A stretch of 44,421 bases of DNA from IMG/VR virus record IMGVR_UViG_2529292911_000009. One strand, written 5' to 3'. The stretch comes from a virus (lineage: Duplodnaviria > Heunggongvirae > Uroviricota > Caudoviricetes). A program made the translations under genes and the position numbers. Below the pieces are notes generated by a model. It searched no databases and was not told the DNA's origin. It was given only the letters and a program-made list of their open reading frames with translations. This document shows positions 26,221 to 44,421 of the stretch, in pieces. Numbering within the stretch: the first letter of the stretch is position 1; each line of letters opens with the position of its first letter.

Positions 26221-26295
<75 letters not shown>

Positions 26296-26298
26296 ATA

Positions 26299-26374
<76 letters not shown>

Positions 26375-26376
26375 AC

Positions 26377-26453
26377 TGGACCGCCACCGGGGACTCGAAC
26401 CTCGCACACTCAACTTAAAGGGTTGACGCTCTTTCCTGATGAGCTAGTGGCGG
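26377..26453 (-). tRNA. tRNA-like gene, anticodon loop CCUUUAA (nominally Lys UUU), atypical
   Basis: Cloverleaf can be drawn (acceptor CCGCCAC/GTGGCGG, D stem GCTC/GAGC, T loop TTCGAGT, CCA) but it has C at position 33, C1-G72, U73 and one T-stem mismatch. Confidence 0.45.
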
Positions 26454-26454
26454 C

Positions 26455-26530
26455 TGGTGGCCCTTGCTGGATTTGAACCAGCGACCTGGCGATTATGAGT
26501 CGCTCGCTCTCACCACTGAGCTAAAGGGCC
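26455..26530 (-). tRNA. tRNA with CAU anticodon, ileX-like (tRNA-Ile2 lysidine type) or Met
   Basis: Acceptor GGCCCTT, anticodon loop CUCAUAA, T loop TTCAAAT. Closely resembles E. coli ileX as recalled. Confidence 0.7.
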
Positions 26531-27782: not shown

Positions 27783-28904
27783 TTACCCGAGCACGCCGGT
27801 TGCAAAGGCGTGATCAAGAAAACGAAAAATTAAATCAACCTGGGAACCATGCTTTTCTTCGAACGCCAGCGGATCCGCATGAAGTTCGTTGTGATGTTCC
27901 CGGCACAACGGTAGCGTGAAAATATCGTGGGCCTTTGTTCCCATCCCTCCCTGACCGTGACCAATCAGGTGATGGGGATCGTCGGCTGGCTGACCACAAC
28001 ACGCACACGGCTGTGTCTTCACCCAGCGCGTATATTTCTCATTTACCCAACGGCGACGTTTAGGTCGCCTCATGAAAGATTCCGGAGACTCCGGATCAAC
28101 GGTGATGCATACCACCGTCTTTTCCTGTGGTGGGTTCTGTTGCTGGTGGGCATGAGGCAACGGCGCAAGATTTTTTGTGCGCTGCTTCAGTATGCTGGTG
28201 GCGGTCTGCTCTCCCGGTACGATGTCGCTTTCGCGGTACAAGGAGCGGATTTTTTCCGCACGTACCCCCAGAGAACGACGTAATACTGCCTCCGGAAGCG
28301 CGTCCGCCACCTGATTGCAGACCGCCCACCAAGATAATTCAGCCAGCGACAATTCCCGCTCCTGCGTGCCATTCATTGCATGGCGTATGACGTCAATCAT
28401 CCATGCTGACAGGTTTTGATGAGCAAGTTGCCCGAGTGATTCGGATGTCTGGTCACGCAACTGGTTGTCGCAGTGCCAGCACAACACCATCGCGCTGGTA
28501 CCGTAACGATGTATGACGATTTCACTGTGATGATAGTCACCATGAGGCCACTGGCAGGATTTGACATGACGCAACAGCCAGTCAGACAGTGCCCCAGCGC
28601 CGCCAGCAGCACGAATCACCCGCTCATCGCTGAAAAATGGCAGTAATGATTTATCCTCCGCCAGCGGCTGGCGAACGGCAGGGACGACTCCGGACGGCAG
28701 ACCGCGCATGCTTTTCGGTTCAGGCTCCACCAGCACTCGAGGGTTATGAAATACTTGCATGGATTCACGGCCCGGCCTAAGGACCACCAGCCCGAGTTCC
28801 GGTACCAGAACAGGTCGAAGTAATATCCGCACGTTACCTCCAGATCCGTTGCTGGTATGTGCGGGATGGGTGCGGTGGGCGTTCGGAATAAGGGAGCCTG
28901 ACAT
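27783..28904 (-). CDS. DUF968/YdfU-like protein with C-terminal HNH-like zinc-binding motif
   Basis: C-terminus CACCG...DPHHLIGHG...LCREHHNELH. Start uncertain (28904 or 28760). Family name is from recollection. Confidence 0.45.
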   Translation of the reverse strand: MSGSLIPNAHRTHPAHTSNGSGGNVRILLRPVLVPELGLVVLRPGRESMQVFHNPRVLVEPEPKSMRGLPSGVVPAVRQPLAEDKSLLPFFSDERVIRAAGGAGALSDWLLRHVKSCQWPHGDYHHSEIVIHRYGTSAMVLCWHCDNQLRDQTSESLGQLAHQNLSAWMIDVIRHAMNGTQERELSLAELSWWAVCNQVADALPEAVLRRSLGVRAEKIRSLYRESDIVPGEQTATSILKQRTKNLAPLPHAHQQQNPPQEKTVVCITVDPESPESFMRRPKRRRWVNEKYTRWVKTQPCACCGQPADDPHHLIGHGQGGMGTKAHDIFTLPLCREHHNELHADPLAFEEKHGSQVDLIFRFLDHAFATGVLG

Positions 28905-29944: not shown

Positions 29945-30100
29945 TTACTCCTCAGGTTCGTAAGCTGTGAAGACAGCGACCTCCGTCTGGCCGGTTCGGA
30001 TTCGTACCTCGCAGAGGTCTTTCCTCGTTACCAGTACCGTCACTATGACGGTTAAACAGATGACGATCAGGGCGATTAACATCGCCTTTTGCTGCTTCAT
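29945..30100 (-). CDS. hok: Hok/Gef-family type I toxin
   Basis: MKQQKAMLIALIVICLTVIVTVLVTRKDLCEVRIRTGQTEVAVFTAYEPEE is a typical Hok (close to hokD/relF as recalled); an in-frame upstream extension to 30157 resembles mok. Confidence 0.85.
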   Translation of the reverse strand: MKQQKAMLIALIVICLTVIVTVLVTRKDLCEVRIRTGQTEVAVFTAYEPEE

Positions 30101-30300
30101 AGCCTGCTTCTCCTTGCCTTTCGGCACGTAAGAGGCTAACCTACATTTGTGAGACATAGATTGGGCCTCAGATTAATGTTAAGCGTCTTGCAGGACGCGT
30201 AATGTTAACTGGGGCTTTTCTCTATCTGCCTTTTGGTGTTCATGCCCGAGGCAGATAGCCTCAAGCACCCGCAGCAATTCTACTTAACTCTCCTTTTCCC
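30101..30300. other. hok mRNA leader with long hairpin and probable antisense Sok region
   Basis: Inverted repeat tctatctgcc...ggcagataga at about 30222-30262 in the expected leader position. The Sok promoter was not pinned down. Confidence 0.4.
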
Positions 30301-30360: not shown

Positions 30361-31256
30361 TCAAAACTCAATTTTTTGCGCTGGTCTTGCATTTAATATC
30401 CAACATTCTTGATGAGTGTGGTGCGCAATCAATAAATTTTGTAGTTGTGTTTTTTTGGCTTTATAATTTAACTCATTTGTCGTATCAATTATCCAATTCC
30501 CTGTCCCCGAAGAAGCCAGTGCCATGAGTTTATTACACTCTGCATGCATATTAATTATCTCACCAAACATATCTGTTTTTGTTTTTTTATTCACAAAGTT
30601 AGTAAAAATACCAGCATGCTTATAAGAATCCATTACAGTATAACGGCCATCACCATCTATATCAGAAGGTTTTGACATCCATTTAAAAACATGAAGGAGA
30701 AAAATATTGGCCGTCCAAGGAAATTCATCTCCATCAAGAAACGTTTCAGTAGTCGCTATACTCAGACTCTCAGTAAGATTAGTCGCCCCAATTAAAACAA
30801 CCTCAGGCTCGCCATCCTTTCTTTTACCCGCCCCAACAAAATTGAACGTACCTGCATAACACTGTCCAAAATAAACAATAGCATTGTTTAAATTAGGTGC
30901 TCCTTTTAAAGCCTTGAGAAGTTGATGAGGAGTAATAGGATTTTTTGCATCCAGTCCTTGTGGGCAACCATGACCAGTAACAAACATTACTATGTTATTG
31001 TAGTTATTATCACGCAAGTCATTAAAGAAATCTGCTGATGCTTTTGACGCATAAGGATACTTCGAGGCTGATGAAAAAAATCATCAAAATTCCTGTTAGG
31101 GCTGTCAATATATATTGATATGTCTCGTGGATTTATACCGGCCTTCTCAAGACATAGCACGCCAAAAACAATATCCAAAACGTGGCGCGATTCAACTTCT
31201 TCTTTAGAACGAGGCAAAAACATAACCCATTTCGTACGCTCAGACCTAAGGCTCAT
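30361..31256 (-). pseudogene. caspase-like (clan CD) cysteine peptidase homolog, interrupted by a 1-nt indel in an A7 run
   Basis: ORFs 30990..31256 and 30361..31017 are one gene in two frames. Adding one A at plus 31074-31080 gives a continuous protein of about 298 aa with strand-helix alternation and His-Gly (IVMFVTGHG) and Cys (AIVYFGQCYAG) dyad strands. Low GC. Confidence 0.6.
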
Positions 31257-36119: not shown

Positions 36120-36539
36120 ATGGTTCATGAAGATAAAGCGCGTAAAGAGTTCGCCAGTAGGCTTGCGCTAGCCTGTGAAAACGCTGGTTATGAACAACAT
36201 GGAAGGCAGGCAGAAATTGCCCGTCGAATGAAATTAACACCAAAAGCGGTTAGCAAATGGTTTAATGGCGAAACAATTCCTCGCCGGGAGAAATTAAGGG
36301 AATTAGCAACACTAATAGGAACAACACCAACCTATCTTTTGGGAGAGGATACAGAAGAAAGTGGACAGGTACGTTTCTATCAGGAGTTAAATCCAAGACA
36401 AAAAATCATCATTGACCTTCTGGACGAGCTCCCTGACAGTGAGACAGATGAACTTTTAAAAACTCTTGAAGAGAAAAAACAGAAGTACAATGCAATTTAC
36501 GAAGAGTTAGCACGAAAGAAAAAACAAAAAGCCTCTTAA
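36120..36539 (+). CDS. prophage repressor, RacR-like HTH protein
   Basis: 139 aa with HTH segment QAEIARRMKLTPKAVSKWF, divergently transcribed from the Cro-like gene. Confidence 0.65.
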   Translation: MVHEDKARKEFASRLALACENAGYEQHGRQAEIARRMKLTPKAVSKWFNGETIPRREKLRELATLIGTTPTYLLGEDTEESGQVRFYQELNPRQKIIIDLLDELPDSETDELLKTLEEKKQKYNAIYEELARKKKQKAS

Positions 36540-36833: not shown

Positions 36834-36992
36834 AGCATGGATACTATCAATCTTGGCAACAGCGAATCTCTGGTATGTGGCGTGTTCCCCAACCAGGACG
36901 GTACGTTCACCGCAATGACGTATACCAAAAGCAAAACGTTTAAAACCGAATCTGGAGCGCGTCGCTGGCTGGAAAGAAATTCAGGTGGGTGA
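36834..36992 (+). CDS. small protein, YdaF-like
   Basis: About 52 aa from MDTINLG; resembles the Rac early-left small gene as recalled. Confidence 0.4.
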   Translation, partial: SMDTINLGNSESLVCGVFPNQDGTFTAMTYTKSKTFKTESGARRWLERNSGG

Positions 36993-36993
36993 T

Positions 36994-37122
36994 ATGGATT
37001 TCGACACAATCATGGAAAAGGCTTACGAAGAATACTTCGAAGGCCTTGCCGAAGGCGAAGAAGCTCTCAGCTTCAGTGAGTTTAAACAGGCGCTTTCCAG
37101 CTCGGCAAAATCTAACGGCTGA
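36994..37122 (+). CDS. small acidic protein, YdaG-like
   Basis: 42 aa ORF MDFDTIMEKAYEEYFEGLAEGEEALSFSEFKQALSSSAKSNG read directly from DNA; start overlaps the upstream stop. Below the ORF-track size cutoff. Confidence 0.4.
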   Translation: MDFDTIMEKAYEEYFEGLAEGEEALSFSEFKQALSSSAKSNG

Positions 37123-37151
37123 TAAGCGAAGCAACACCGCGAGGAATCAGT

Positions 37152-37370
37152 ATGCAGAAACGAGAACCCGTCATCATCGCGCCAGATTATACCGATGATG
37201 AACTTTATGAGTGGATGCGCCAGAAAATTAATGCAGCGCAGGATCTGAAATGGGCCAATGAAGCCAGGGCTAAGCAGGCTGAAAATCTGTCCGCTCTGGA
37301 GCAGGATATCACCAGGCTGGAAAAAGCAGCGGCATTAAGCATTGCCAGAATGATTACATACCCGCGTTAA
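37152..37370 (+). CDS. small hypothetical early protein (KilR-position candidate)
   Basis: 72 aa ORF with coiled-coil-like C-terminus; GAGGAA RBS. Confidence 0.4.
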   Translation: MQKREPVIIAPDYTDDELYEWMRQKINAAQDLKWANEARAKQAENLSALEQDITRLEKAAALSIARMITYPR

Positions 37371-37399: not shown

Positions 37400-37935
37400 T
37401 TAAGGAGTTCTCCACGGGTGAGGTGGAGTGCGTGCGCCGGACACGGGTGAGCATCCGGCACTGACAGTTTACTGAAAGGATATTTCCATGAAAAGTCAGA
37501 CCATAACGCGAAAGCGCACGGCGAGGTAGCTGGTTCATAGATAGCCTGTCGTTAAATTTTCGTCGGCCGTGCGCTTCCGGTTGTGGCACTCCGCGAAATG
37601 GCGCGGCGGTAAGTATGGCGGGGTTATTCCTTCCCCGTTGAGGACACCTGGTTGTCAGGTTGACCATACGCTTAAGTGACAACCCCGCTGCAACGCCCTC
37701 TGTTATCAATTTTCTGGTGACGTTTGGCGGTATCAGTTTTACTCCGTGACTGCTCTGCCGCCCTTTTTAAAGTGAATTTTGTGATGCGGTGAATGCGGCT
37801 AAGCGCACGCGGAACAGTTAAAACCAAAAACAGTGTTATGGGTGGATTCTCTGTATCCGGCGTTAATTGTTAACTGGTTAACGTCACCTGGAGGCACCAG
37901 GCACCGCATCACAAAACTCATTGTTGAGGGCGCGA
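37400..37935. other. structured GC-rich noncoding region with nested hairpins and a long-range 15-nt inverted repeat
   Basis: No credible ORF. 14-bp hairpin 37509-37522 / 37566-37579; exact inverted repeat ttttgtgatgcggtg (37777-37791) / caccgcatcacaaaa (37902-37916); GTTAAC-TG-GTTAAC palindrome. Confidence 0.5.
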
Positions 37936-37937
37936 TA

Positions 37938-38126
37938 ATGAAAACGTTATTACCAAACGTTAATACGTCTGAAGGTTGTTTTGAAATTGGTGTCACTATC
38001 AGTAATCCTGTATTTACTGAAGATGCCATTAACAAAAGAAAACACGAACGGGAGTTATTAAATAAAGTATGCATTGTTTCAATGCTGGCCCGTTTACGTC
38101 TGATGCCAAAAGGATGTGCACAATGA
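37938..38126 (+). CDS. small hypothetical protein
   Basis: 62 aa from MKTLLPN with GAGGG RBS; first gene after the structured region. Confidence 0.45.
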   Translation: MKTLLPNVNTSEGCFEIGVTISNPVFTEDAINKRKHERELLNKVCIVSMLARLRLMPKGCAQ

Positions 38127-38314
38127 ATCCAGTATTTGCACTTATTCTGACGGTTTTTCTTGTTTCCGGAGAGCCAGTTGATATTGCAGTCAGTGTTCAC
38201 AGAACAATGCAGGAATGTATGGCAGCAGCAACCGAACAGAAAATTCCAGGCAACTGTTATCCGGTCGATAAAGTTATTCACCAGGATAATAACGAAATCC
38301 CGGCAGGTCTTTAA
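38123..38314 (+). CDS. small secreted/membrane protein
   Basis: 63 aa from MNPVFALILTVFLVSG (signal-like N-terminus) with AAGGA RBS; start overlaps the upstream stop. Confidence 0.45.
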   Translation: MNPVFALILTVFLVSGEPVDIAVSVHRTMQECMAAATEQKIPGNCYPVDKVIHQDNNEIPAGL

Positions 38315-38407: not shown

Positions 38408-40849
38408 ATGAGCACTGATAAAGAAGAATTTGCACTATATTGCGAAGCAAAAAATGACAAAGTAAGAAAACGCCTAGGAATTAAAGGTGGTTTTTACTGG
38501 ACTACAGCAAAAAAATTATCTGTTGCAATCTCCCGCTGCATTACCGCAATGGATGACAACGATTATGATGAAGACGACTTTAAAAAACCCGTCCGCGTCA
38601 ATTTGCCCGTTGTTGACGACCTTCCGCCAGAAGGCGTGTTTGATACTGAATTCTGCAACCGCTATGAAAAAGGCGGGAAAGATGGCATCACAATGACATT
38701 TATCGGCCCTTCCCCCTCTGTTCAGGACAAACCAGCCAGCACTGACAATACCAACATCAACGGCGAAGACATGGCTGAGATTGAGGAGAGCATGCTTCTG
38801 CCTGTCTCCGGTCAGGAACTGCCCATTCGTTGGCTTGCTCAACACGGCAGCGAAAAACCAGTAACGCACGTTTCACGCGACGAACTCCAGGCATTACACA
38901 TTGCACGGGCTGAAGAACTACCGGCTGTTACTGCCCTGGCTATTTCGCATAAAACCAGTCTGCTCGACTCGCTGGAGATTCGCGACCTCCACAAACTGGT
39001 TCGTGACACTGACAAAGTTTTCCCTAATCCTGGTAATTCAGACCTGGGACTAATAACTGCTTTTTTCGAAGCATACCTGGACGCTGACTACACTGATCGG
39101 GGTCTGCTGACAAAAGAGTGGATGAAAGGAAATCGTGTTTCACGCATCACCCGCACGGCTTCCGGTGCTAATGCTGGCGGTGGGAACAAAACCGATCGCA
39201 ATCCGAATTTAGTACACACCCTCGACACACTGGATGTGGAGATTGCAGCAGCCACACTTCCGATGGATTTTAATATTTATGAAATTCCGGGCAGCGTTTA
39301 TCGTCGCGCAAAAGAAGTAGTCCTGAACAAAGAAAGTCCGTTCAAAGAATGGTCCGCAGCACTTCGTGCAACCCCGGGTATTCTGGACTATTCCCGCGCC
39401 GCTATTTTTGCACTTATCCGAAGCGCACACCCTGAATTTTATCACTACCCGGGACGCCTTCAGGGGTATATCAACGCCTATTTGACGGAAACTGATCACG
39501 AGAACCCCAGCAAGGAAACTCTCACAGCTGCCCGGCATACGCCGGAAAAAGATATCCTGGAAGAAATTAACCGCGAGGTGGTTACTGAGCGTGAAACAGA
39601 AGAAGAAAAACCACAACCATCTGACGCAATGGCAGGTGAACAGGCAACAACTGAAACAATGGAACCGGATACAACTGAACATGGCCAAAACGCGCAGTCG
39701 CTGGATGCTCAGTCGCAGGTGAGTTCCGCTAACCAAGTAAAAGTCACCGCTGACGAAGTAAACAAAATTATGCAGGCAGCCAATATCAGCCAGCCTGACG
39801 CCGATAAGTTACTTGCTGTATCGCGTGGTGAATTTGTTGAGGGGATTAGCGACCCGAATGATCCGAAATGGATTAAGGGGATCCAGACCCGCGATTCTGT
39901 GAACCAGAACCAGCAAGAAACGGAACAGAACGACCAGAAAGCGGAACAAAACAGCCCAAATACGCAACAAAACGAGCCAGAAACGAAACAACCTGAACCA
40001 GTAGTGCAACAGGAACCGGAAAAGATCTGCACCGCCTGCGGTCAGAGCGGTGGCGGCAACTGCCCTGATTGTGGTGCGGTGATGGGTGACGCAACATACC
40101 AGGAAATATTCGATGGAGAGAATCAGCCTGAAGTTCAGGAAAATGATCCGGAGGAAATGGAAGGCACTGCGCATCAGCACAAGGAGAACCCTGGCGGCAA
40201 TCAGCATCACGCCAGCGATAATAAAACTGGCGAGGCGACAGATCCCTTAATTAAGGTGAATGGTCATCATAAGCTCACATCCACCAGCAGAGCGGGGATT
40301 CATCTGATGATCGACCTTGAAACCATGGGAAAAAATCCCGATGCCCCGATTATCTCAATAGGCGCAATATTTTTCGATCCACAAACCGGAGATATGGGAC
40401 CGGAATTTAGCAAGACCATCGATCTGGATACTGCTGGCGGAGTCATTGATCGTGACGTCATTAAATGGTGGCTAAAGCAATCACGTGAAGCGCAGTCTGC
40501 CATTATGACCGATGAAATCCCGTTAGATGATGCACTACTGCAATTGCGGGAATTTATCGACGAAAACTCCGGTGAATTTTTTGTTCAGGTCTGGGGTAAT
40601 GGGGCCAACTTCGACAACGTGATTTTACGCCGTTCATACGAACGACAGGGTATCCCCTGCCCGTGGCGCTACTGCAACGATCGCGATGTACGCACAATCG
40701 TTGAGCTGGGGAAAGCCATAGACTTCGATGCCAGAACTGCTATCCCATTCGAAGGTGAGCGCCATAATGCACTTGATGACGCTCGTTACCAGGCAAAATA
40801 CGTTTCAGCTATCTGGCAAAAACTGATCCCGAGTCAGGCTGATTTTTAA
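38408..40849 (+). CDS. RecE-like protein with C-terminal DnaQ-like (DEDDh) 3'-5' exonuclease domain
   Basis: 813 aa. N-terminal and central parts resemble the non-catalytic part of Rac RecE as recalled, including CTACGQSGGGNCPDCG. The C-terminal roughly 200 aa carry DEDDh motifs MIDLETMG, NGANFDNVIL and HNALDDARY. Confidence 0.7.
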   Translation: MSTDKEEFALYCEAKNDKVRKRLGIKGGFYWTTAKKLSVAISRCITAMDDNDYDEDDFKKPVRVNLPVVDDLPPEGVFDTEFCNRYEKGGKDGITMTFIGPSPSVQDKPASTDNTNINGEDMAEIEESMLLPVSGQELPIRWLAQHGSEKPVTHVSRDELQALHIARAEELPAVTALAISHKTSLLDSLEIRDLHKLVRDTDKVFPNPGNSDLGLITAFFEAYLDADYTDRGLLTKEWMKGNRVSRITRTASGANAGGGNKTDRNPNLVHTLDTLDVEIAAATLPMDFNIYEIPGSVYRRAKEVVLNKESPFKEWSAALRATPGILDYSRAAIFALIRSAHPEFYHYPGRLQGYINAYLTETDHENPSKETLTAARHTPEKDILEEINREVVTERETEEEKPQPSDAMAGEQATTETMEPDTTEHGQNAQSLDAQSQVSSANQVKVTADEVNKIMQAANISQPDADKLLAVSRGEFVEGISDPNDPKWIKGIQTRDSVNQNQQETEQNDQKAEQNSPNTQQNEPETKQPEPVVQQEPEKICTACGQSGGGNCPDCGAVMGDATYQEIFDGENQPEVQENDPEEMEGTAHQHKENPGGNQHHASDNKTGEATDPLIKVNGHHKLTSTSRAGIHLMIDLETMGKNPDAPIISIGAIFFDPQTGDMGPEFSKTIDLDTAGGVIDRDVIKWWLKQSREAQSAIMTDEIPLDDALLQLREFIDENSGEFFVQVWGNGANFDNVILRRSYERQGIPCPWRYCNDRDVRTIVELGKAIDFDARTAIPFEGERHNALDDARYQAKYVSAIWQKLIPSQADF

Positions 40850-40907: not shown

Positions 40908-41111
40908 ATGAGCAGCTTATTTTTAACCGAAGATGAATTGCTAATATTAACGGGCTGCAAATATGCAAGCCACCAGCGAAAATGGTTAATGGAAAACGGG
41001 CTTCCGTTCTATACCAATCGTAGTGGCAAACCGATTGTCAGCCGGGATCTATTTACCTGCAATAAAACTTTACCACCACGCGAGGTAGAGCCGAATTTTG
41101 GTGCGATCTGA
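40908..41111 (+). CDS. excisionase-like protein
   Basis: 67 aa ORF immediately upstream of, and translationally coupled to, the integrase gene. Confidence 0.55.
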   Translation: MSSLFLTEDELLILTGCKYASHQRKWLMENGLPFYTNRSGKPIVSRDLFTCNKTLPPREVEPNFGAI

Positions 41112-42135
41112 TGGGAAGACGAAGGAAAAATCCTGAACACGAAAAATTACCTCCAAATGTATACCCAAATAAATATAGTTATGTATGGAAACCAACATCC
41201 AGAGAATCTGTCACACTAACCGCCATCAAGGATGGTTTAGCTGCTTTATGGAAAAAGTATGAGGAAACTGTAAATAATCGCGATCGTGCAATGACATTCG
41301 GTCGCTTGTGGGAAAAATTCCTCGCCAGCGCCTATTACAGTGACCTTAGTCCAAGAACACAAAAAGATTATCTGCAACATCAAAAAAAGTTGCTTGCCGT
41401 ATTCGGTAAGGTACCAGCGGATTCCATAAAACCAGAACACATCCGTCGATACATGGACAAAAGAGGGGAGCAGAGTAAAACGCAAGCCAACCATGAAAAA
41501 AGCAGTATGTCCCGTGTTTACAGTTGGGGGTATGAGCGAGGGTACGTGAAGGCTAACCCATGTGCAGGTGTAAGTAAATTCAAGGCCAAAAACCGCGAAC
41601 GATATGTAACCGACAAAGAATACCAGGCAGTATTAAGCGTTGCACCTCTTCCTGTTTTTATCGCAATGGAAATTGCCTATCTGTGTGCAGCGAGGGTTTC
41701 CGATGTGTTATCGCTGAAATGGGAACAGATTGGAAACGACGGGATATTCATCCAGCAAGGGAAACCGGAAAAAAACAGATAAAAGCATGGAGTCCACGAT
41801 TACAGGCAGCGATCGAAAAAGCAAAACAGTTACCAAAATCTGCCTATGTGATCAGCAATCAATACGGCAACCGATATATGTACAAAGGCTTTAACGAAAT
41901 GTGGGTAGATGCAAGAAATCGTGCTGGAAAAATTTCAGGTATTTTAACCGACTTCACCTTTCATGATCTGAAGGCGAAAGGAATTTCAGACTATGAAGGA
42001 AGCAGCCGGGATAAGCAACTTTTCTCTGGTCACAAAACCGAAGGGCAAGTGCTAATCTATGACAGGAAGGTTAAAGTTTCACCAACACTTGATGTCCCGT
42101 TACCTGAAAATATTCCAAGAAAATATTCCAAGTAA
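41111..42135 (+). pseudogene. int: tyrosine integrase, frame interrupted by a single-base deletion in a short A run
   Basis: ORFs 41111..41782 and 41683..42135 are one integrase in two frames. Restoring one A near 41762-41764 gives IFIQQGKTGKKQIKAW, a typical integrase motif. True pseudogene or sequencing indel. Confidence 0.75.
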
Positions 42136-42187: not shown

Positions 42188-42277
42188 TGGCGGAGAGAGG
42201 GGGATTTGAACCCCCGGTGGAGTTGCCCCCACTCCGGTTTTCGAGACCGGTCCGTTCAGCCGCTCCGGCATCTCTCC
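42188..42277 (-). tRNA. serU: tRNA-Ser (anticodon CGA), serU-type
   Basis: 90 nt with long variable arm, anticodon loop CUCGAAA, CCA encoded. 5' end GGAGAGATGCCGGAGCGG. Confidence 0.85.
42203..42249. repeat. att-type direct repeat, right copy (inside intact tRNA-Ser)
   Basis: Matches 151-197 with 3 mismatches; two of them form a compensatory base-pair change in the tRNA variable arm. Confidence 0.75.
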
Positions 42278-43268: not shown

Positions 43269-43344
43269 TCCTCTGTAGTTCAGTCGGTAGAACGGCGGAC
43301 TGTTAATCCGTATGTCACTGGTTCGAGTCCAGTCAGAGGAGCCA
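43269..43344 (+). tRNA. asnT: tRNA-Asn (anticodon GUU)
   Basis: TCCTCTGTAGTTCAGTCGGTAGAACGGCGGACTGTTAATCCG...GAGCCA, anticodon loop CUGUUAA. Confidence 0.9.
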
Positions 43345-43504
43345 ATTTTCTGTTTTCATGCATCCTTGCAAATCTTTATCTGATGTTGATTCAACAGGTT
43401 AGTGTGAAAACTCTTCTCGGTGCATTCTGATTTTACCCTACGCATCGGGAAAAATTGGTGGTCAAATCTGGGATCAGGTTAGTTCGATAATGGAGTGACC
43501 CCCA

Positions 43505-44421
43505 TATGTTCCTTACCGACGCAAAAATCCGCACCCTCAAGCCTTCTGATAAACCCTTTAAAGTCTCCGATTCTCACGGTCTGTATCTGCTGGTCAAGCC
43601 GGGTGGCTCCCGCCACTGGTATCTCAAAGCTGGAGGTTGCGTCCCGCACACGGCAGCACCTGAGTAACATAATGCGCCATGCGGTCCATCAGGAGTTAAT
43701 CGATACGAACCCTGCAGCAAACCTTGGCGGCGTGACCACACCTCCTGTCAGACGGCACTATCCTGCCCTGCCGCTGGAGCGGCTGCCTGAACTGCTTGAA
43801 CGTATTGGGGCATATCATCAGGGCCGTGAACTGACCCGGCATGCCGTTCTGCTGATGCTGCATGTGTTCATTCGCTCCAGTGAACTGCGTTTCGCCCGCT
43901 GGTCAGAGATTGATTTCACAAACCGAGTCTGGACGATACCCGCGACGCGAGAACCCATTATTGGCGTGCGTTATTCCGGCCGCGGGGCAAAAATGCGAAT
44001 GCCGCATATCGTCCCCCTCTCAGAACAGTCCATCGCCATTCTGAAACAGATTAAGGATATCACCGGTAATAATGAACTGATCTTCCCCGGCGACCATAAC
44101 CCGTATAAGCCAATGTGTGAAAACACGGTCAATAAGGCACTGCGGGTGATGGGTTACGACACGAAAAAGGATATCTGCGGTCACGGCTTCCGGGCAATGG
44201 CATGCAGTGCGCTGATGGAATCGGGTTTATGGGCAAAGGACGCAGTAGAACGCCAGATGAGTCATCAGGAGCGCAATACCGTGCGCATGGCTTATATTCA
44301 TAAGGCAGAGCACCTAGAAGCCCGCAAAGCGATGATGCAGTGGTGGTCGGATTATCTGGAAGCATGCCGAGAATCTTATGCACCGCCTTATACAATTGGT
44401 AAAAATAAGTTTATCCCATAG
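43505..44421 (+). pseudogene. P4-type integrase remnant with internal out-of-frame deletion
   Basis: N-terminal MFLTDAKIRTLKPSDKPFKVSDSHGLYLLVKPGGSRHWYLK runs into a stop after 53 codons; the C-terminal catalytic region (HGFRAMACSALMESG...) continues in another frame. Roughly 115 aa appear to be missing. Confidence 0.75.

Follow-up and report, generated by a model that had tools for sequence, protein, structure and literature searches.

Exonuclease VIII, the RecE protein of the Rac prophage (b1350 in Escherichia coli K-12), is a 5'-3' nuclease of the PD-(D/E)XK type that makes 3' tails for annealing by RecT, whose gene overlaps the recE stop codon. Exonuclease A of phage T4 (DexA), whose structure was solved by Kang et al. 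2025 (PMC12153337), degrades DNA in the 3'-5' direction and has a documented function in DNA-end processing during intron homing (PMC12153337). EcD, a stand-alone DexA homolog from E. coli, protects against T4 when supplied on a plasmid and digests T4 DNA, which contains 5-hydroxymethylcytosine (5hmC), sparing unmodified double-stranded DNA, and bacterial DexA homologs are most prevalent in Escherichia (PMC12153337). DnaQ-like 3'-5' nucleases also occur in the early-left operons of lambdoid phages, often beside int, as described by Zheng et al. 2025 (PMC12315714), who defined a 'Tritos' class of Rec modules that contains a nuclease and no single-strand annealing protein (SSAP), SSB or anti-RecBCD protein, in genomes with 21/6 to 7/2 Chi sites; 'RecE-2' proteins lacking a nuclease domain are mentioned in the same work (PMC12315714). 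The gene analyzed here lies at positions 38408..40849 (+ strand, stop codon included) of the virus record IMGVR_UViG_2529292911_000009 (Caudoviricetes), a stretch of 44,421 nucleotides that is referred to as the window, and it codes for a RecE-type scaffold fused to a DEDDh exonuclease domain. Searches of the literature on Rv2179c together with phage, on ydfE, and on DEDDh together with exonuclease VIII found no characterization of such a RecE-DEDDh fusion.

The gene is an ATG-initiated open reading frame (ORF) of 813 amino acids (aa) with matches in Pfam, NCBIfam and PHROG. An initial annotation of the window described RecE-like N-terminal and central regions followed by DEDDh motifs instead of the PD-(D/E)XK nuclease, and the domain searches agree with it on both points. 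In Pfam, Exonuc_VIII (PF06630) covers aa 57-189 (E 1.1e-35) and the Rv2179c-like 3'-5' exonuclease family (PF16473) covers aa 632-803 (E 3.2e-66; 222.8 bits against a cutoff of 27; positions 2-177 of a 177-position model), and the same scan gave no match to the PD-(D/E)XK family DUF3799 (PF12684) anywhere in the protein. An identical scan of Rac RecE places PF12684 (PDDEXK-like) at aa 615-850 (E 4e-28). The RecE equivalog of NCBIfam, NF007259, matches aa 1-616 only (model positions 1-603 of 877) and its score of 933.4 bits is under the cutoff of 1269. BLASTP against K-12 Rac RecE aligns aa 58-615 with RecE 50-591 at 58% identity, with no similarity after this point, so that the homology breaks where the RecE nuclease starts. 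The gene is a module exchange, in which a DEDDh nuclease stands in for the RecE nuclease on a conserved RecE scaffold. As in Rac RecE, the protein contains the Exonuc_VIII domain, the SRGEF..DPNDPKW motif, a CxxC...CxxC motif and an acidic linker, and its gene is a few genes away from xis-int in the early-left operon; unlike in Rac, the nuclease is of the DEDDh type, its polarity is expected to be the opposite, and no recT is found downstream.

The product is modeled as a three-part tethered nuclease, in which a disordered linker of ~235 aa joins a folded N-terminal region to a C-terminal domain with the DnaQ fold. The RecE-like N-terminal region (aa 1-395; 38408..39592, +), a small alpha/beta domain followed by a helical domain, is confidently folded in an AlphaFold2 model made with a 52-sequence alignment (mean predicted local distance difference test score, pLDDT, of 83, with 262 residues at or above 90). 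The linker (aa 396-630; 39593..40297, +) is acidic, rich in Q, E and N, and predicted to be disordered; 86% of the residues in aa 501-550 are polar, which bears out the Q/E/N-rich linker of the initial annotation. It contains the motif SRGEFVEGISDPNDPKWIKGIQTRD and four cysteines in a CxxC-x7-CxxC arrangement (C541, C544, C552 and C555; 40028..40072, +), both conserved in Rac RecE (CNACGQTGGDNCPDCG at the cysteines) and in the phage Tritos protein. The initial annotation regarded the cysteines as a zinc ribbon, and this claim stood only in part: the cysteines are real and common to Rac RecE, but a ribbon domain was rejected, as the conserved motif lies with low confidence inside the disordered linker (pLDDT mostly below 50 for ~aa 489-627, motif included, in a model of aa 441-813). 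The four cysteines could still form a zinc knuckle.

The C-terminal domain (aa 631-813; 40298..40846, +; DnaQ fold, Rv2179c-like or DexA-like) contains the five catalytic residues of the DEDDh family. D636, E638, D736, H786 and D791 are invariant in an alignment with 14 relatives of 51-71% identity, and they align with D7, E9, D119, H186 and D191 of T4 DexA, in accordance with the motifs noted in the initial annotation. Residues 631-810 have pLDDT values of 81-94, and the structural neighbors found with Foldseek are T4 DexA (E 1e-10; TM score 0.64-0.71, normalized by target length), RNase T (1e-8), a Cas2-associated DnaQ domain and oligoribonucleases (Orn, REXO2). In a profile search of the PDB with the domain family, DexA was the only match (E 3.6e-16). 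The gene is under purifying selection, because the ratio of nonsynonymous to synonymous divergence (dN/dS) is 0.11-0.13 in the exonuclease domain; in the linker this ratio is 0.44-0.46. The enzyme is very probably a DEDDh 3'-5' exonuclease. Strong homology to DexA, RNase T and other DnaQ-fold enzymes points to 3'-5' polarity, opposite to that of RecE, in line with the different polarity proposed in the initial annotation, and DNA is its presumed substrate.

T4 DexA (PDB 8KEL/8KEN) is the best PDB match both by sequence and by structure, and it shares family, fold and catalytic D/E/D/H/D residues with the C-terminal domain. The two proteins are only 26% identical, and DexA is a stand-alone protein of 227 aa, with extra loops, that comes from a virulent phage with modified DNA. 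The residues proposed to recognize 5hmC in DexA, W152 and D169, correspond to C756 and A770 and are not conserved, although at 26% identity this alignment is indicative only; among relatives, the W152 position is occupied by W, F or Y and the D169 position by S, Q, F, T or A. D90, a residue of the DexA tetramer, is kept as D708, a position at which EcD has Ala. EcD (or HREX) is likewise a bacterial or prophage-borne E. coli member of the family with conserved catalytic residues (PMC12153337), but it is small and stand-alone and keeps the 5hmC-recognition residues, whereas the protein described here has a 630-aa N-terminal extension. The sequence of EcD was available through its primer ends alone (MIDTET at the start and TIPETY at the end), and no matching protein was retrieved.

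The closest relative in organization is the 'exonuclease VIII' of phage Tritos (OV696610, TRITO_27), which lies in an operon of the same composition (cI, ydfABC, DicF, dicB, ydfD, exo, xis, int). Both proteins have the linker and the DEDDh domain, with ~90% identity from aa 443 on, but the N-terminal region of the Tritos protein is different ('MSKVFICAAIPDEQ...'), has no Pfam match and shows only weak similarity, over aa 270-375. The two phages also share a nuclease-only module, with no annealing protein, SSB or anti-RecBCD protein, and a Chi-rich genome, and the prophage fits the Tritos class (an early-left nuclease, no SSAP, SSB or anti-RecBCD protein, and a Chi distribution of 14/5). The gene is internally mosaic, because the Tritos protein, with its different N terminus, is ~90% identical over aa 443-813 and because synonymous divergence (dS) from phage vB_EcoS-640R1 is 0.007 in the N-terminal region and 0.25 in the C-terminal domain.

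Exchange of nucleases on the RecE scaffold is recurrent and no one-off: of the representatives with the RecE-like N-terminal region that reach 400 aa, the DEDDh domain is found in 16 and the RecE nuclease in 23, and many have neither domain. These representatives belong to a set of 190 (clustered at 50% identity) obtained from a search of 1.84 billion proteins. Several of them (P0126, P0171, P0168, P0245 and others) are proteins of 700-800 aa with the RecE-like N-terminal region and no Pfam-recognizable nuclease domain. Other kinds of C-terminal domain on the scaffold were looked for in ten nuclease-less representatives and discarded, since no Pfam domain beyond Exonuc_VIII was found in them; the nuclease-less proteins may correspond to the 'RecE-2' proteins described by Zheng et al. 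or reflect gene calls that were truncated.

The novelty implied by the initial annotation was not borne out. The identical protein is present in RefSeq as 'exonuclease' (e.g., WP_000102137.1, from E. coli strain 14EC029); over the whole gene there is 100% nucleotide identity to RefSeq coding sequences (CDSs) in 5 complete E. coli genomes, also named 'exonuclease' by the Prokaryotic Genome Annotation Pipeline (PGAP); its synteny is recurrent, and the work of Zheng et al. 2025 is a precedent. The feature is an already known, very common and catalogued gene of E. coli prophages. Matches with at least 80% coverage were found for the full gene in 1265 of 5426 complete E. coli genomes and for the DEDDh domain in 4043 of them (75%), at up to 7 places per genome, and some part of the gene is matched in 4743. 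The domain is also present in 732 of 50,697 phage records, both temperate and virulent (tblastn, E<=1e-5).

Homologs of the domain were also examined in their genomic context with one genome per species, which gave 80 loci, nearly all from Enterobacterales. The length of the exonuclease ORF is bimodal in these loci: ~52 are stand-alone proteins (182-260 aa) and 25 are long (641-851 aa). The long genes of other species are found in a minimal operon, where a repressor and a handful of small ORFs precede exo, xis and int; every conserved ORF upstream of exo is small. The stand-alone genes share with the gene in the window a domain of 59-71% identity and, usually, the position of last early-left gene before xis-int (e.g., a Salmonella protein of 189 aa, P0111), but they lack the RecE scaffold and have other neighbors. 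Five of them follow Erf-SSB (some with Abc2 after the exonuclease), two follow Sak4-SSB, six are downstream of an RdgC homolog, five are downstream of DUF2303 and a ParB-like gene, and ~20, from ~20 species, are downstream of YfdP-DUF2303-HD. RecT and Bet were found by phmmer in 0 of the 80 loci. The trio upstream of stand-alone exonucleases, a YfdP-like protein (PHROG 204), DUF2303/YfdQ (PHROG 210) and an HD-domain YfdR-like protein (loci L027-L095), fills the spot that Erf or Sak4 with SSB holds in other prophages, and it could be an unrecognized DNA-transaction module.

The element that carries the gene is a lambdoid prophage of ~41 kb (1400-42160), integrated at a tRNA-Ser (CGA) gene (42188..42277, -; ARAGORN, Rfam and PGAP) beside mtfA. 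The leftward early region is headed by a DicA/cI-like repressor with a helix-turn-helix domain (36120..36539, +; 'helix-turn-helix domain-containing protein' in PGAP), which belongs to an ORF cluster (c5) that is conserved upstream of long exo genes in other species. It is followed by the small dicB-operon genes ydfA-like (DUF1391), ydfB and ydfC (36837..37370, +; ORFs, and PGAP annotation of the matching stretch of 14EC029), the small RNA DicF, between ydfC and dicB (37712..37763, +; Rfam RF00039, 76.7 bits against a gathering score of 48), dicB (37938-38126, +; PGAP, ORF) and a ydfD-like DUF1482 gene (38123-38314, +; PGAP, ORF) directly upstream of the exonuclease. An excisionase-like xis gene (DUF4224; 40908..41111, +; ORF, PGAP) starts 58 bp past the exonuclease stop codon, and next to it lies a frameshifted tyrosine integrase (41111..42135, +; overlapping ORFs 41111-41782 and 41683-42135, and labeled 'frameshifted' by PGAP in 14EC029). 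The prophage may be unable to excise owing to the split integrase, the exonuclease itself being intact. Conservation of the order dicB-ydfD-exo-xis-int extends to four integration sites and to the record of phage Tritos; the gene order is equal in vB_EcoS-640R1, E. coli W, O157 and strain 605, and the sites in other E. coli strains include rspB, ompW and potC. In a search for a promoter or terminator of its own for the exonuclease, a weak consensus scan gave no more sites than shuffled sequence; no promoter-like site was found in the 93-bp gap upstream of the gene, and one was found upstream of ydfA.

Elsewhere in the prophage, the nin region contains, beside RusA, a hokD-type toxin gene (29945-30157, -) and a DUF968/HNH-like gene (27783-28904, -), which are ordinary Qin-type features. 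A cluster of four tRNA genes (26221-26530, -) is located downstream of the Q antiterminator, with a CAU tRNA, Lys-UUU, Thr-UGU and Gly-UCC; the CAU tRNA is assigned to Met by ARAGORN and to Ile by PGAP, and it is probably a lysidine-modified Ile tRNA. At the end of the window (43269-44421), a second integrase ORF comes after a tRNA-Asn gene and continues past the last position. A separate genomic island probably begins here, because in the related record ON470580 the equivalent tRNA-Asn is followed by integrase and recombinase fragments and by siderophore-biosynthesis genes (salicylate synthetase).

No annealing protein gene lies between the exonuclease and xis/int, as the initial annotation had stated, and the search was extended to the whole prophage with the same outcome: no recT or bet homolog was found. 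All stop-to-stop ORFs of 60 aa or more in the window were searched by phmmer, and zero matches were obtained with Rac RecT, lambda Bet, Exo and Gam, P22 Erf and Abc2, or the RecE nuclease. No annealing protein is present in the PGAP annotation of the whole prophage, and neither Sak4 nor SSB was found in it. Ten early hypothetical ORFs compared with Pfam and PHROG were a replication initiator, DUF968/HNH and unknowns, with no SSAP among them, and a hidden annealing protein was discarded as a candidate after these comparisons and the phmmer searches with RecT, Bet and Erf. The sole sizeable orphan (30361-31256, -) is in the nin region, has a low GC content (~0.41) and matches nothing in Pfam, PHROG or PADLOC. 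It is one CDS of 298 aa in 14EC029 (WP_000058713.1) and two ORFs of 218 and 88 aa in the window, owing to a 1-bp indel, and it may be a moron or accessory gene.

The window is rich in Chi sites (GCTGGTGG), with 19 occurrences against 1.55 expected for both strands (maximum of 5 in 100 shuffles). The late-gene (-) strand contains 14 of them and the opposite strand 5, and a group of them lies near the Q/lysis end (25592, 26595, 28727 and 28784). No Chi site was found in P22 (41.7 kb) or in the 27-35.6 kb stretch of lambda. Across the 80 loci, the DNA from upstream of the exonuclease through the gene contains 3.9-4.2 Chi sites per 10 kb on the strand opposite to exo, against 0.8-0.9 on the exo strand.

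Taken together with the operon, these data are compatible with a mechanism in which the C-terminal DEDDh domain would remove nucleotides from 3'-OH ends using two metal ions, as its homologs do. The exonuclease is the last gene before xis-int of a leftward early operon (ydfABC-dicF-dicB-ydfD-exo-xis-int) in a Qin/Tritos-type lambdoid prophage. This operon corresponds to the DicA-repressed dicB operon of Qin in K-12, and, given this position, the protein would most likely be made upon induction and not in the lysogen. With no annealing protein, SSB, Gam or Abc2 and with Chi enriched on the late-gene strand, the phage would most likely rely on the RecBCD-Chi-RecA pathway of the host for its recombination-dependent growth. 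The exonuclease would then trim 3' tails or flaps at DNA ends, either blunting them enough for RecBCD entry or clearing non-homologous 3' ends before priming, as DexA does in T4 intron homing, and, unlike RecE with RecT, it would not make 3' tails for annealing. The presence of stand-alone copies of the domain within Erf/Sak4/SSB/Abc2 modules, or near an RdgC homolog, in other prophages supports the link to recombination. DNA-end processing, one of the roles suggested in the initial annotation, is still our best guess for the role. We tentatively favor a tethered nuclease that trims 3' ends and so aids phage recombination dependent on host RecBCD and RecA, and not single-strand annealing, a reading to which we would give almost, but not quite, even chances; that 3'-end trimming is the biological role of the protein is somewhat more doubtful.

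Several points weigh against the favored reading. DnaQ-type 3'-5' exonucleases usually inhibit homologous recombination and do not promote it, and Zheng et al. are reluctant to regard DnaQ genes close to int as part of the recombination functions (PMC12315714). The enrichment in Chi is a trait of the whole phage that does not alone implicate the exonuclease gene, and Chi is just as abundant in Class A phages, which lack Rec genes altogether (PMC12315714). Polarity and substrate (DNA or RNA) are deduced from ~26% identity to DexA, the promoter scan is weak, so that the gene may also be expressed in the lysogen, and the RecE-like N-terminal region gave no structural relative in the searches made with it.

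The main rival to end trimming for recombination is a defense or superinfection-exclusion function of the HREX type, in which the protein would act like EcD, sparing unmodified host DNA and degrading the 5hmC DNA of T-even phages. DexA as closest solved relative, the anti-T4 activity of EcD and the prevalence of DexA homologs in Escherichia are in favor of it, together with the frequency of the domain (75% of E. coli genomes, up to 7 copies in each), which is a spread typical of prophage accessory or defense genes. A weak PADLOC match to a CRISPR-associated DEDDh model has also been counted on this side, although membership of a defense system was rejected, since the match is marginal (E 1.3e-4) and the model generic. 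However, the residues at the two 5hmC-recognition positions are lost (C756 and A770) and D708 is retained where EcD has Ala, with the caution already mentioned about 26% identity; EcD is a different, stand-alone protein, as judged from its primers, and a RecE scaffold of 600 aa would be superfluous for a simple restriction nuclease. Since the gene also sits inside an early-left operon of the dicB type with no promoter-like site upstream (in the weak scan), and stand-alone homologs occur inside Erf/Sak4/SSB/Abc2 recombination modules, we consider a defense function unlikely. The anti-defense role suggested in the initial annotation found no specific support, and no known anti-defense family was matched. 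The broader version of this idea, in which the exonuclease would destroy retron msDNA, single-stranded DNA made by reverse transcriptase or oligonucleotide signals, or would break fragments of host DNA down to nucleotides, like DexA in T4 infection, is improbable: the early timing after induction deduced from the operon, the oligoribonucleases (Orn, REXO2) and RNase T among the structural neighbors and the spread of the domain in both virulent and temperate phages would suit it, but the RecE scaffold and the neighboring recombination modules point to DNA ends and not to small-molecule signals. Degradation of host DNA is not known from lambdoid phages.

The same structural neighbors, the name of the Pfam family, taken from an exoribonuclease of Mycobacterium tuberculosis (Rv2179c), and the co-linearity of the gene with DicF would fit an enzyme that trims RNA 3' ends, for instance those of transcripts of its own operon such as DicF. 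This is very unlikely, as both single-sequence and profile searches of the PDB matched DexA alone, which is a DNase, the scaffold is common to a DNA recombination nuclease, and stand-alone copies adjoin SSB, Erf, Sak4 and Abc2. A RecET-like annealing system whose annealing protein was missed, because it is too divergent, lies elsewhere in the prophage or is supplied by another prophage such as Rac, has an equally slim chance. SSAPs were looked for by sequence only, the 298-aa orphan lacks a family match, and many E. coli strains also hold RecET-type prophages (part of the gene is matched in the 4743 genomes mentioned above); nevertheless, a 3'-5' nuclease would destroy the 3' tails that an annealing protein needs, and the interface between RecE and RecT is in the nuclease domain, which this protein lacks (PMC11611040). 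The orphan belongs to the nin region and to another operon, with low GC and a frameshift, none of the 25 loci with a long exonuclease in other species has a conserved ORF of annealing-protein size between repressor and exo, and RecT and Bet were found in none of the 80 loci. Finally, a decaying and functionless remnant in a defective prophage might be suspected from the frameshifted integrase next to the gene, from the close relative vB_EcoM-606R7, in which the gene is split into two CDSs, and from the lack of a full-length copy in K-12 (PMC12153337). Nevertheless, the 813-codon ORF is intact here, the gene is also intact in the record of phage Tritos and in genomes numbering thousands, the nuclease domain shows the low dN/dS given above, and its five catalytic residues are invariant across relatives of 51-71% identity, which makes decay scarcely credible.

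As a discovery, the gene matters little, being among the commonest of E. coli prophages and having an architecture that was already catalogued. Its present naming is misleading: ON470580, ON470612, OV696610 and LR597641 label the DEDDh-type gene 'exodeoxyribonuclease VIII' or 'ds DNA exonuclease', and the former label implies a RecE-like 5'-3' activity that the sequence does not support, so the locus should not be read as a RecET-type recombineering system. The functional question that it poses is the role of a tethered 3'-5' exonuclease in Chi-rich lambdoid phages without annealing protein and Gam. A second question concerns the conserved and well-folded N-terminal region of RecE, which is 'of unknown function' in the literature, although full-length RecE underlies linear-linear recombineering. 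A single scaffold found with either of two nucleases that differ in polarity, or at times with no nuclease, is a clean natural experiment for both. A rather unlikely, though attractive, proposal is that the RecE N-terminal region and linker form a nuclease-agnostic delivery module, targeting DNA ends or a host factor, which would carry a PD-(D/E)XK nuclease where RecT is present, a DEDDh nuclease where there is no annealing protein, or no nuclease. If this were true, the DEDDh version would represent a third strategy of phage recombination, a 3'-end trimmer that conditions ends for RecBCD-Chi-RecA and neither replaces nor inhibits this pathway, and it would provide the first functional handle on the N-terminal domain of RecE, which has gone unexplained for 30 years.

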